The translations under genes and the position numbers were made by a program. Shown here piece by piece: positions 5,035-61,443 of a stretch of 64,000 nt of DNA. The notes beneath the pieces were generated by a model that saw only the letters and a program-made list of their open reading frames with translations, had not been told where the DNA came from and searched no databases. The stretch's first letter is position 1, and every line of letters begins with the position of its first letter. Source of the stretch: a virus (Duplodnaviria; Caudoviricetes); the IMG/VR virus record IMGVR_UViG_3300042402_003952; one strand, 5' to 3'.

Positions 5035-5039
5035 CACAA

Positions 5040-5111
5040 CCTCTGGTAGTCTATTGGTAAGGACGGGCGGATAACGCACTTGGAAACTAGGTTCGATTCC
5101 TAGACAGAGGT
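5040..5111 (+). ncRNA. tRNA-like RNA with a non-canonical anticodon arm
   Basis: Acceptor CCTCTG/CAGAGG, D-arm GTC/GAC with TGG, T-arm CTAGG-TTCGATT-CCTAG; the anticodon region GGGCGGATAACGCAC gives only a ~5-nt loop. Confidence 0.6.
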
Positions 5112-5114
5112 AAC

Positions 5115-26760: not shown

Positions 26761-26806
26761 GAACCCTGTTCGTCCCCACGAACTCTTACTTAACCCTTTT
26801 TCAAAT

Positions 26807-29180
26807 ATGACTGCTTCAATCGCTTCACGCCGTTCTGGCGAAAACCTCTGGGAACAATTCTGTTCCTGGGTAACTTCAACCGATAATAGACTGTATGTTG
26901 GTTGGTTCGGAGTCCTTATGATTCCTTGCCTTCTTGCTGCTACAACTTGTTTTATTATCGCTTTCATCGGTGCTCCCCCTGTAGACATAGACGGTATCCG
27001 TGAACCCGTTGCTGGTTCACTAATGTATGGAAACAACATCATCTCTGGTGCTGTTATTCCAAGTTCTAATGCCATTGGATTGCATTTTTACAGCATCTGG
27101 GATGCTGCTTCTCTTGATGAGTGGCTTTATAAATAATATTGGGTCACTTTAAATCGGGTGAACTGCTGGAAAGCTAAGTTCTTTATGAAACACAAACATC
27201 ACCTTACTCCAAAATATCTTGGTGGTTCTAACGAATCCCAAAATCTTGTAGAAGTTTCTACAACTCAACACGCTATGTTTCATTATTGTAACTGGCGTCT
27301 TTGGGGAAACGAAGAAGATAAGATTGCTTGGAAAGCACTTGCAGGATACTCTAAAAAAGAGGAAATAATTCATCAAGTTATTTCTCTTGCAGGTAAAAGA
27401 GGTGGTAAGGTTGCAAAAGAAAGCGGACAACTTCGGTCTGCTGCTCTTAAACAACCAAGAAGTGTAAGGCAAAAGATTGGTAAAAATCTTATCAACTATG
27501 CCTACAAAAATCCAAAGAATGCAACACAAGAAACTCTTACTAATAGAAAATACAGTAAAGTATTTCACATTTATGAAAAACTAACTGAAAGGACTATTGG
27601 TAATCATCTTGGGGATGTAGTTTTTAATCCAGAAGAAGATAAAACACTCAAAACTGTTTGTTCTATTATTCTGGAAAAATATGGGGTAAAAGTTTATCCT
27701 TCACATCTTAATAGTGTTGCTAATGGAAATAGACTTTTAACAAGTGGTATTTCTTGTAGTTGGATTTTAGAGAATATGCCAATCAGCATCCAAGCCACAG
27801 ACGATACTTCTGTGGAAGGTTCAGAGACTACTGGGTTCAACAAGCGTGTTGAGTAATACCAGATTAGCGCCCGACATCTTATAAAAAATAAGATGAAGAT
27901 ATAGTCCAGTCCATATGGAAACATATGGTTCCCCCGACTGCTATAATGGGGGTCCTTTCCAACTTGTTGTCTTCCACTTCCTCATCGGCATCTACTGCTA
28001 TATGGGTCGTGAATGGGAACTCTCTTACCGTCTAGGTATGCGCCCTTGGATTATGGTTGCTTATAGCGCACCTGTTGCTGCTGCGAGTGCTGTATTCCTG
28101 GTCTATCCTTTCGGTCAAGGTTCTTTCTCTGATGCGATGCCTCTTGGTATCTCTGGTACATTCAACTACATGCTTGTATTCCAGGCAGAGCACAACATCC
28201 TGATGCACCCCTTCCACATGCTTGGAGTTGCTGGTGTCTTCGGTGGTTCTCTTTTCTCTGCTATGCACGGATCTCTTGTCACCTCTAGTCTTGTACGTGA
28301 GACTACAGAAAATGAGTCACAGAACTACGGATACAAGTTCGGACAAGAAGAAGAAACCTACAACATTGTAGCTGCTCATGGTTATTTTGGTCGCCTTATC
28401 TTCCAATATGCTTCCTTCAATAACTCACGTTCACTTCACTTCTTCCTTGCTGCTTGGCCCGTTGTAGGCATCTGGTTCACTGCTCTTGGTGTTTCTACAA
28501 TGGCTTTTAACCTCAATCGTCGGGGTCCCGTCTTAGCAATTTGACGGTAAACATCGGGTGAACTGCTGGAAGCCCTCCATAAATGGGTAATCAGCATCCA
28601 AGTCCAAAGTACACTTTGGAAAGGTTCAGAGACTACCTGAGGAGTTCAGTCTCCTTAATAACAGGAATAAGTGCCCGACATCCTAAATGGATGAAGATAT
28701 AGTCCACTCCTTAAAGATGGTAAATTTAAGGGTTCAGTGCAACGGTTTTAATTTCAATCAGTCCATCATTGACTCACAAGGTCGTGTCCTTAATACTTGG
28801 GCAGATGTACTGAATCGTGCAGGTCTCGGAATGGAGGTCATGCATGAACGGAACGCTAGATTTGTTGGTGTTCTTGCTTAGGAATAAGCATTAGTAAAAT
28901 CGGGTTAAACGGGGAAACTCTCTATGAGACAATCCCGTACCAAGTCAGAAAGGGTTTAAGTTTTCTGAAAGGTCTAACGACTAGATGGTGAGTCCCAACA
29001 ATAATCCATCCACGAATGCCCGACATCCAGAACGGATGAAGAGATAGTCTGAACTTACTAGTGATAGTAAGAAGTAGAGGATAAAGAACCACTACGATAA
29101 CAAAATTGCACAACTTCCCACTTGACCTTGCCGCAGCAGAAGCAACACCAGTTGCTCTTACTGCTCCCGCAATCGGTTGA
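26807..29180 (+). CDS. psbA: photosystem II D1 protein in four exons (26807-27126, 27941-28513, 28740-28857, 29109-29180)
   Basis: Joined exons total 1083 nt = 360 aa plus stop; junctions restore EWL|YNGG, AFNL|NGFN and ERNA|HNFPLDLA. Confidence 0.97.
27127..27940 (+). mobile_element. group I intron 1 in psbA, encoding an HNH endonuclease
   Basis: 5' exon ends in U with P1 GTGGCT/GGTCAC; terminal G at 27940; core motifs AATCGGGTGAACTGCTGGAA, AATCAGCATCCAAG, GGTTCAGAGACTA, AGATATAGTCC. Confidence 0.92.
27185..27856 (+). CDS. intron-encoded HNH homing endonuclease
   Basis: [30 protein letters not shown]; the 3' end reads through intron core motifs. Confidence 0.85.
   Translation: MKHKHHLTPKYLGGSNESQNLVEVSTTQHAMFHYCNWRLWGNEEDKIAWKALAGYSKKEEIIHQVISLAGKRGGKVAKESGQLRSAALKQPRSVRQKIGKNLINYAYKNPKNATQETLTNRKYSKVFHIYEKLTERTIGNHLGDVVFNPEEDKTLKTVCSIILEKYGVKVYPSHLNSVANGNRLLTSGISCSWILENMPISIQATDDTSVEGSETTGFNKRVE
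28514..28739 (+). mobile_element. group I intron 2 in psbA (ORF-less, 226 nt)
   Basis: Core motifs ATCGGGTGAACTGCTGGAA, AATCAGCATCCAAG, GGTTCAGAGACTA, AGATATAGTCC; terminal G at 28739; removal restores CT|C AAC GGT. Confidence 0.92.
28858..29108 (+). mobile_element. group I intron 3 in psbA (ORF-less, 251 nt) near codon 334-336
   Basis: P1 GAACGCT/GGTGTTC; motifs AAATCGGGTTAAACGGGGAA, CAATCCCGTACCAAG, GGTCTAACGACTAG, AGATAGTCT; terminal G at 29108. Confidence 0.92.
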
Positions 29181-60556: not shown

Positions 60557-60763
60557 ATGAATCCTTATCGCATTAACTATAAAGCACTGAAACAAGAACC
60601 AGTGAAAACAACACCAGAGAATGTGAAGGAGGCAAATGAAAACCTGTTTTGTGCTCGTTGGAATTTGCCAACTGCTGCAAAGCACTGTGGAATGAGTGAA
60701 AAGGAAATGCGCTTGACATTCTTTGAGTATCTGAAGTATAATGATGTAACTTACAAAGTGTAA
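60557..60763 (+). CDS. hypothetical protein
   Basis: 68-aa ORF; WNLPTAAKHCGMS. Confidence 0.65.
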   Translation: MNPYRINYKALKQEPVKTTPENVKEANENLFCARWNLPTAAKHCGMSEKEMRLTFFEYLKYNDVTYKV

Positions 60764-60771
60764 GTTTTTAT

Positions 60772-61053
60772 GGCGGTCTAGCCCAGCGGAAGAGGCAAAC
60801 GACTTTAACAATTTGAGCACCACAGTTGGAAACTCTGTGCGTGAATCCTATCAAATTCGGGGAAACCTGTGAAATGGCAATCCCGAGCCAAGCAAGAGAA
60901 ATCTTGAAGGTGTAGAGAGCAGTAGGTAGGAACCTAAATCCTTATGGATATGGTTAAGGGGTGCTCCAGACCACAAACAATCTTATGGTTGGTAGTGAAA
61001 ACTATAGTGGTAAGAAAATCGTTCAAGGGTGGGTTCGAATCCCACGACCGCTA
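60772..61053 (+). tRNA. trnL: tRNA-Leu(UAA) split by a group I intron (exons 60772-60805 and 61015-61053)
   Basis: Joined exons give acceptor GGCGGTC/GACCGCT, AACGA-CTTAAAA-TCGTT and GTGGG-TTCGAAT-CCCAC; short variable loop; A73. Confidence 0.9.
60806..61014 (+). mobile_element. group I intron (IC3, cyanobacterial trnL type), 209 nt
   Basis: P1 CTT/GAG; TCAAATTCGGGGAAACC, GGCAATCCCGAGCCAAG, GTAGAGAGCA / TGCTCC (P7), GGTAGTGAAAACT; terminal G at 61014. Confidence 0.9.
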
Positions 61054-61095: not shown

Positions 61096-61365
61096 ATGAA
61101 ATACAGAATAGATGCCAGATACGTTTGGTACAATCGTGGGACTCAAATTATTCTCCTGTATTTTGTAAATCAAATTCCTTTTACTTTTGATGAACTCGAC
61201 GACGAATCTTTATTCGACTTGGAGTTAATCAAATTAGCAGACAACGAAAGACGCTTTGAACCAGAGGATTTGTACCAATCTTCCTATTATCTTATGTTAG
61301 AAGAATGTCATCCTTTGCTTTATGAGTTAGATCTGGAAAATCCAGAAATGTTGCCTGTTGATTAA
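61096..61365 (+). CDS. hypothetical protein
   Basis: AAGGA RBS; 89-aa acidic ORF. Confidence 0.7.
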   Translation: MKYRIDARYVWYNRGTQIILLYFVNQIPFTFDELDDESLFDLELIKLADNERRFEPEDLYQSSYYLMLEECHPLLYELDLENPEMLPVD

Positions 61366-61370
61366 TTTTT

Positions 61371-61443
61371 GCTCCTAAAGCATTTAGTGGCGATGTACCT
61401 GACTTGTAATCAGGAGAGGATGGTTCAATTCCGTCTGGGAGCT
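61371..61443 (+). tRNA. tRNA-Thr(UGU)
   Basis: CCTGA-CTTGTAA-TCAGG; acceptor GCTCCTA/TGGGAGC; U73. Confidence 0.9.

Follow-up and report, generated by a model that had tools for sequence, protein, structure and literature searches.

The window analysed here is a 64,000-nucleotide (nt) stretch of viral DNA (Duplodnaviria; Caudoviricetes; IMG/VR record IMGVR_UViG_3300042402_003952) that carries a tRNA gene interrupted within its anticodon. The exons, the insert, its helices and the neighbouring open reading frames (ORFs) discussed below all lie on the plus (+) strand. Exon 1 (60772..60805, 34 nt) ends in CTT and provides the 5′ strand of the acceptor stem, the D arm, the 5′ strand of the anticodon stem and C32, U33 and U34. 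It is followed by a 209-nt insert (60806..61014) that begins TAACAATTTGAGC, ends GTAAG and has the layout of a compact, ORF-less, IC3-like group I intron. Exon 2 (61015..61053, 39 nt) begins AAAATCGTT and supplies A35, A36, A37 and A38, the 3′ strand of the anticodon stem, a 5-nt variable loop, the T arm, the 3′ strand of the acceptor stem and A73; the CCA end is not encoded. A direct reading of the sequence and a script agree on these limits, and ARAGORN in intron mode calls a tRNA-Leu(taa) with a 209-nt intron. The split gene is missed by ARAGORN at default settings and by the Rfam tRNA model.

The joined exons are folded by ARAGORN into a 73-nt cloverleaf with a UAA anticodon, the 7-nt loop CUUAAAA, a 5-nt variable loop, a G1.U72 pair and discriminator A73 (A61053). 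None of the other junctions tried in this gene gives both a 7-nt loop and a terminal G. The initial annotation, made from the sequence alone, had described tRNA halves around a 209-nt insertion after U34 and a short variable loop in the spliced tRNA. It was exact in both respects, as direct reading, script, ARAGORN in intron mode and uninterrupted alleles (below) concur. We conclude that the locus very probably holds a phage tRNA(UAA), nominally a tRNA-Leu, whose short-loop body is split between U34 and A35 by a compact, ORF-less IC3-like group I intron.

The fold of the insert was evaluated on a 20-row alignment (A1) that combines it with 19 homologous sequences taken from viral contigs and bacterial genomes. 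The model comprises helices P1 to P9 with the P3/P7 pseudoknot, 61 pairs in 14 helices, and controls were made by sliding pairing partners 1-3 columns and by 500 shuffles. Standard pairs occupy 95.2% of 1183 cells, versus 31-45% with slid partners, and compensatory changes on both sides occur at 38/61 pairs; none of the shuffles (0/500) attains any of the observed measures. Compensatory changes are found in P2, P3, P7, P8, P9 and P9a, and P4 is nearly invariant. The window intron retains all 62 columns that are invariant over the 20 homologues, and every core helix is intact. The group I core motifs noticed earlier belong to this P1-P9 fold.

P1 (60803..60817) pairs exon nucleotides CUU (60803-60805) with the guide GAG (60815-60817), and U60805.G60815 forms the splice-site wobble. 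In the alignment the U.G pair is kept in 20/20 rows and the adjoining U-A and C-G pairs in 19/20 each, which bears out the CTT/GAG helix of the initial annotation. The other guide half, UUU (60812..60814), complements AAA of exon 2 (61015-61017) as P10, so that a single six-base guide, UUUGAG, addresses both exons. The P2 hairpin (60821..60839) is capped by a GAAA tetraloop, with compensatory changes at 7/7 pairs. P3 joins 60847..60852 to 60925..60930 (5/6 pairs compensatory, 96.7% of cells paired). P4 (60857-60862/60881-60886) encloses a short P5 (60866-60867/60876-60877), and this region (60857..60886) is 100% paired and nearly invariant. P6 (60887-60889/60909-60911) and the GAAA-capped P6a form a hairpin spanning 60887..60911, in which the third P6 pair is C-G in 15, G-C in 3 and U-A in 2 sequences.

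P7 joins 60915..60921, with bulged A60916, to 60962..60967; all cells are paired (100%) and 3/6 pairs show compensatory changes. The GAGCA/TGCTC helix recognized earlier (60917-60921/60962-60966) lies within it. G60915-A60916-G60917 and U60965-C60966-C60967 are invariant (20/20), and G60917-C60966 is the predicted guanosine-binding pair, which we take to be equivalent to the G264-C311 site of Tetrahymena, with A60916 presumably corresponding to the bulged base there. The window has GAGCA/UGCUC where the family consensus is GACUA/UAGUC, and both differing pairs are compensated. The P8 hairpin (60931..60955) holds a CCUAAA...UAUGG motif of the 11-nt GAAA-tetraloop-receptor type, presumably acting as a receptor as it does in IC3 introns. 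A P9.0 stem (60970-60974/61007-61011) encloses the P9 and P9a hairpins (60970..61011 overall), and the terminal guanosine before the 3′ splice site (omega-G, G61014) is invariant. GAAA tetraloops cap P2, P6a and P9a. The layout is compact, with P2 present, no P5abc, GNRA loops on P2 and P9 and the receptor motif in P8. We take this combination to be the mark of IC3, and the architecture suggests membership of that subgroup.

The insertion lies between nt 34 and 35 of the UAA anticodon (CUU/...g/AAAA), which is the classical ‘Leu.3Ug’ site (Williams 2020, 10.1101/2020.01.27.920355). An IMG/VR scan with the predicted spliced anticodon arm recovered an uninterrupted tRNA, reading ...AACGACTT|AAAATCGTT..., at the same syntenic position in at least 15 viral contigs (L081, L067, L023, L061, L049, L051, L048, L046, L017, L029, L028, L006, L068, L040 and L014). 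Synteny here means that one or both window flanks (ORF 60557-60763; the region from 61054 on) are shared. Over tRNA positions 8-65, ten contigs match the joined exons perfectly (100%), and over the full 73 nt two reach 94.5% identity; positions 8-34 of exon 1 are identical to the uninterrupted alleles. This presence/absence polymorphism places the insertion exactly, between nt 34 and 35. Judged by sequence, the insert is a true group I intron; it occupies the classical trnL(UAA) site, within a short-loop tRNA of phage type.

Intron-plus alleles of the short-loop tRNA are rare, with three known (the window, L121 and L361) versus dozens of intron-minus alleles. Exon-anchored gap-pattern searches returned only L121 in IMG/VR and only L361 among metagenome contigs. 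The split gene of L121 is syntenic and 85% identical to that of the window. L361 represents a 97%-identical phage whose intron differs at two bases, one of which changes a P2 pair from A-U to G.U, whereas the second is in an unpaired linker. An 18-nt exon-intron junction pattern also returned L120, L122 and L123, which are chance matches in coding DNA, and a looser exon anchor returned L371-L373, chance matches with no tRNA. The variable loop (61024-61028) reads CAAGG in 3/3 intron-plus alleles and CAAGC or CCAGC in the 15 syntenic intron-minus alleles; the difference could be a co-conversion tract left by intron transfer, or could reflect shared lineage. ARAGORN also calls an 81-nt UCA-anticodon tRNA directly upstream of the split gene in L121 (L121:10508-10588) and none at the corresponding place in the window.

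The host tRNA has a class I body, without the long variable arm of class II: its joined exons measure 73 nt, and 64/64 sampled cellular Leu(UAA) intron hosts have 83-90 nt of exon. Two bacterial tRNA-Leu features, the A73 discriminator and a leucine anticodon, are both present after joining, and similar short-loop genes are annotated as tRNA-Leu in P-SSM7, P-RSM6 and the Pseudomonas phages ZC03 and ZC08. This tRNA body is common among viral contigs and has no match above 76% identity in 401 sampled cyanobacterial genomes, in keeping with its earlier description as phage-type. Every short-loop Leu(UAA) allele examined in viral contigs keeps G1.U72 and A73 while the remaining acceptor stem co-varies, and this constancy points to an identity or processing signal. 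The tRNA-Leu(tag) of the same phage (4423-4496, 74 nt) likewise has a short variable loop.

The window has a G+C content of 36.6%, and UUA makes up 22% of its leucine codons. The only other call with a UAA anticodon (ARAGORN tRNA-Leu(taa), 5039-5112) has the loop GATAACG without U33, a C.A mismatch in the anticodon stem and an Rfam tRNA score of 30.1 bits at a cut-off of 29. It is probably defective or unusual. If defective, the intron-split gene would be the sole regular UAA tRNA of the window. Given this and the share of UUA among leucine codons, the split gene is probably needed.

We propose that the precursor would fold into P1-P9, with the guide pairing both to the end of exon 1, CUU, through the U.G wobble and to the start of exon 2, AAA. 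An external guanosine bound at the P7 G-C pair would then cut after U34; G61014 would next occupy the guanosine site, and the freed 3′-OH of exon 1 would join the exons. The product would be a 73-nt tRNA with the loop CUUAAAA, reading UUA/UUG as an A+T-rich phage needs. We infer that these steps could proceed independently of protein. In related introns the P10 half follows the host, being xxG or TAG where exon 2 has CTA (Arg-UCU) and TTG where it has CAA (UCA tRNA). Such co-variation of guide and exon 2 would be hard to explain unless the introns splice in each host.

Contigs from four metatranscriptome runs (X19, X20, X22 and X23) align to this stretch and contain no exon joint; they derive from relatives. 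They cover parts of the intron only, with several differences and with exons of other organisms at their ends, and are uninformative about splicing of the window gene. These marine and aquatic contigs (aligned to window 60813-61020) carry related introns still attached to other tRNA-Leu exons, and represent either unspliced precursors or DNA carry-over.

Several points weigh against our interpretation of the locus. Splicing is deduced from DNA. P1 has only 3 base pairs (bp), so the choice of splice site would depend on the tRNA exons; a short P1 is reportedly usual in tRNA introns, as described by Zaug et al. in 1993. With only three intron-plus alleles of the short-loop tRNA found, the case for selection on the intron in this host appears to lean mainly on introns of other tRNAs. 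The leucine identity of the tRNA is assumed from its anticodon and A73, as its body, with a short variable loop, does not have the long arm that bacterial tRNA-Leu has. Finally, the Rfam group I model RF00028 matches the window at 32.2 bits (E 1.7e-6, permissive search of 501 nt), below its gathering score of 50, and a run at gathering thresholds reports nothing at the locus. The Infernal-type check proposed with the initial annotation thus gave a match, and one that falls short of the Rfam standard. For calibration, cyanobacterial trnL introns score 65-91 bits, L121 53.5, L306 53.3 and the bacterial trnL intron L186 45.4. The low score of the window is probably due to its P7, which deviates from the consensus at two pairs. 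The Rfam group I seed has no bacterial introns, and 18-20 bits have been used instead (Williams 2020, 10.1101/2020.01.27.920355).

Relatives of the intron were collected with the core motif GGCAATCCYGAGCCAAG. A prokaryote scan with one genome per species gave at least 120 loci, and 64 of those listed are in class II tRNA-Leu(UAA) genes of Cyanobacteriota, Pseudomonadota, Acidobacteriota, Bacteroidota and Planctomycetota; the others listed are in tRNA-Met/Ile2(CAU), Lys, Asn, Arg, Phe and other genes. Since the same site is occupied in several phyla, it is not specific to cyanobacteria. The corresponding IMG/VR scan gave at least 117 loci; among the matches listed, about 25 are in tRNA genes and 94 are not, and the tRNA hosts are class II Leu-UAA, Arg-UCU, Met-CAU, Asn, Lys and a UCA tRNA. 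The nearest introns by blastn are all viral among the matches listed (L121, 85% over the split gene; L306/L354, 82%; L248, 77%), and the best cellular match listed is L186, from a Rhodospirillaceae metagenome-assembled genome (MAG), at 72%. The best intron match in the 401 sampled cyanobacterial genomes has 74% identity over 138 nt and lies in a tRNA-Met gene, so that no cyanobacterial donor is in sight among them.

A maximum-likelihood tree was built from 117 tRNA introns (212 columns; IQ-TREE GTR+F+G4; log-likelihood, lnL, -13263.9; bootstrap converged). Its sampling is biased by the exact-motif prefilter and confined to listed matches, and plastid introns were left out; supports are given as SH-like approximate likelihood ratio/ultrafast bootstrap (SH-aLRT/UFBoot). 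A first search ended in a poor optimum 50 log-likelihood units worse, and conclusions are drawn from the longer IQ-TREE search. The window and L361 introns group with L121, L306 and two MAG sequences (99.6/100), nested in a clade of 12-16 rows in which nearly all introns come from viral contigs (92.9/99). The window intron is excluded from a separate clade of the 27 cyanobacterial-type trnL introns (100/100), and the viral-dominated and cyanobacterial clades adjoin (85.5/93). An approximately unbiased (AU) test does not reject the window and L361 as sister of the cyanobacterial clade (delta lnL 11.7, p 0.31). As far as these sequences place it, the window intron is outside the cyanobacterial trnL lineage and belongs to a phage-associated one. 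The earlier label ‘cyanobacterial trnL-type’ therefore holds for site and architecture and fails for lineage: in the tree the two kinds of intron occupy neighbouring clades, and the nearest relatives are viral-contig introns.

The related introns also appear to have changed hosts. In the first tree search, the L121 intron, in a short-loop host, grouped with the L306 intron, in a class II tRNA-Leu (100/88); in the final tree both fall in one 6-row clade, and a single origin of the three short-loop-host introns is compatible with an AU test. Contig L338 carries a split Arg-UCU gene (205-nt intron) and a split class II Leu-UAA gene (237-nt intron) about 600 nt apart (L338:12986-13822), and its two introns sit in different tree clades. 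Together, the L121/L306 grouping and the L338 pair suggest movement between tRNA genes. We tentatively entertain the possibility of a phage lineage of its own, made up of ORF-less IC3 introns that hop among unrelated tRNA genes (short-loop Leu-UAA, class II Leu-UAA, Arg-UCU and a UCA tRNA) by retuning the six-base guide and occasionally seed bacterial tRNA genes.

Several of these relatives, on viral contigs, are members of the clade that holds the window intron: L306/L354 (class II Leu-UAA), L248, L310, L315, L338 (Arg-UCU) and L273 (UCA). By blastn they are 74-82% identical to the window intron over 182-208 of its 209 nt (L273, 70%), and they share its helices and its compact, ORF-less form, but they occupy other host tRNAs and their guides are retuned to other 3′ exons. 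ARAGORN reported a GAA (Phe) junction for L306, L354 and L327; we rejected it, since a U at -1 together with a G at omega is obtained only with the UAA junction. In L273 (14239-14476) the intron, 226 nt long, splits a UCA-anticodon tRNA (called SeC, selenocysteine, by ARAGORN; 89 nt of exon), which may be a UGA-reading tRNA that exists only once spliced.

Cyanobacterial trnL(UAA) introns (Kuhsel et al. 1990, as cited in PMC3984707) share with the window intron the site CUU/...g/AAAA, the U.G pair, omega-G, the absence of an ORF and the P4/P6 core motif GGCAAUCC(C/U)GAGCCAAG. They differ in length (220-312 nt), in their P9 region and in their ends: they begin AGAAAACTGAGC and end AGAATG, whereas the window intron begins TAACAATTTGAGC and ends GGTAAG. 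Their hosts are class II tRNAs with a long variable arm, in contrast to the 73-nt short-loop phage tRNA. The Leu(UAA) introns of Pseudomonadota, Acidobacteriota and Bacteroidota have the same site, a GGTAAG or GGTACG 3′ end and a length of 202-250 nt, and L186, the 72% match, belongs with them in kind; they are unlike the window intron in their class II cellular hosts and formed their own clade in the first tree search (96/97). The Azoarcus intron is likewise a ribozyme of ~200 nt in an anticodon loop with a 3-bp P1, no P5abc, GAAA tetraloops on P2 and P9 and a receptor-type motif in P8, but it belongs to another lineage and occupies another loop position in another host tRNA.

Sensitive blastn against GenBank phages followed by ARAGORN identified two further phage tRNA-Leu(UAA) genes split at the same site by introns of the same family. 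One is in the Agrobacterium jumbo phage Atu_ph07 (MF403008.1, about 112.9-113.3 kilobases, kb; L362:453-814; 278-nt intron) and the other in the 735-kb metagenomic phage LR756501.1 (L363:643-933; 205-nt intron). Unlike the window gene, both have class II tRNA-Leu bodies, and identity to the window is about 70-80% over part of the intron. Both split genes are unannotated, and in Atu_ph07 a ‘hypothetical protein’ coding sequence (CDS; AUZ94936.1) is annotated over part of the split tRNA. Introns within phage tRNA genes also occur in Lak megaphages, where the passages of the report that describe them call them ‘enigmatic’ and previously unreported and name no intron class (10.1101/356790); the window intron, unlike what is described there, has a full group I core.

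It is highly improbable that the intron is decaying and has lost its ability to splice, within a tRNA pseudogene kept only by chance. Such decay would fit the Rfam score below the gathering score, the atypical P7, the rarity of intron-plus alleles against dozens of intron-minus ones and the large phage tRNA set elsewhere in the window. However, all core helices are intact, 62/62 invariant columns are kept and each change in P7 is matched on the opposite strand; between positions 8 and 65 the exons do not differ from uninterrupted alleles that are widely conserved, and the other UAA call of the window looks defective. Recent direct acquisition from the trnL(UAA) of a cyanobacterial host, the origin implied by the initial annotation's label, seems very unlikely to us: the cyanobacterial trnL clade (100/100) excludes the window intron, the ends differ, and the best cyanobacterial match reaches 74%, in a tRNA-Met gene, against 77-85% for viral-contig introns. 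The shared site and overall architecture, the neighbouring position of the two clades (85.5/93) and the sister placement kept by the AU test (p 0.31) are what this origin has in its favour.

The intron might instead be retained for a benefit to the phage, by delaying maturation of the UUA-reading tRNA to a late stage of infection or by disrupting the DNA site at which a tRNA-gene-cutting nuclease acts. The presence in the window of other mobile nuclease genes and of three further group I introns would suit this idea, which we nevertheless judge unlikely, as most close relatives lack the intron at the same locus, the sequence gives no sign of regulation and no endonuclease gene lies between the conserved flanking ORFs. 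It is also unlikely that splicing needs a protein, for instance an RNA chaperone or a factor that binds tRNA, supplied by the host or the phage. The very short P1 and the few peripheral elements of this small ribozyme might call for such help, but the compact IC3 introns of Azoarcus and Anabaena, of the same architecture, self-splice in vitro (PMC3984707), and the GAAA loops and receptor-like P8 motif are present here. Most likely the intron is selfish, a passenger transferred from one phage tRNA gene to another through recombination or reverse splicing. Because it has no ORF and no endonuclease gene was found either inside it or between the flanking ORFs, it presumably spreads by recombination during co-infection or by reverse splicing.

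The split gene sits between two small phage ORFs. The upstream one (60557..60763) matches phrog_1920 (E 2e-28) and is syntenic in intron-plus and intron-minus relatives; the downstream one (61096..61365) matches phrog_4134 (E 3e-31), is also syntenic in relatives and is followed by a tRNA-Thr(UGU) gene (61371-61443). The phage origin of the window, already proposed in the initial annotation, is evident from PHROG matches to a baseplate tail-tube cap, a baseplate hub with tail lysozyme and tail proteins. The window also holds the cyanophage-associated PhotoRC-II and wcaG RNA motifs, a psbA gene and 23 ARAGORN tRNA calls. Its sole named DNA relative is Synechococcus phage S-SM2, a weak match, and megablast of the locus against 50,697 phage records gave no match. 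At least 14 DNA runs from lakes or other fresh waters, spread over many studies, contain nearly all of the stretch around the intron. The locus therefore belongs to a real and widespread freshwater, cyanophage-like virus and is not an assembly artefact. In the lake runs X10-X14, about 62-69% of the sampled words of the locus are present.

Other group I introns were observed in the course of this analysis. The psbA (D1) gene of the window (26790-29180) apparently has four exons and three group I introns, with RF00028 matches at 27663-27928, 28504-28731 and 28848-29071 (52-80 bits) and an ORF with an HNH-like motif inside the first intron region (about 27137-27930). Counting the tRNA intron, the 64 kb hold four. 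In the Pelagibacter phage HTVC120P (MH598807.1 19433-20607; L364:681-1855), the gap between two adjacent ‘capsid protein’ CDSs contains an 84% match to the P4-P6 core of the window intron, and this capsid gene is probably split by a group I intron.

A 2014 review of bacterial group I introns places every phage intron known at that time in a protein-coding gene, despite the many tRNA genes of phages (PMC3984707), and in the open-access literature we found no account of a phage tRNA gene with a group I intron. Standard annotation overlooks split genes, as the window and Atu_ph07 illustrate, so phage tRNA repertoires are undercounted. The survey of alleles suggested with the initial annotation, which yielded at least 15 syntenic intron-minus contigs and the intron-plus L121 and L361, amounts to a natural experiment in which the same phage tRNA gene occurs in synteny with and without the intron. 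Beside it stand near-identical introns in different tRNA bodies, with matching changes in their guides. These alleles and retuned guides make three subjects accessible at the bench: the movement of ORF-less tRNA introns, their possible carriage by phages between hosts and the minimal exon context of an IC3 intron. A role of the phage copy as a vector for horizontal spread, raised in the initial annotation, is plausible. If phages do ferry introns between tRNA genes and hosts, the locus gains interest, and phage seeding would help explain the debated, patchy distribution of the trnL(UAA) intron among bacteria.

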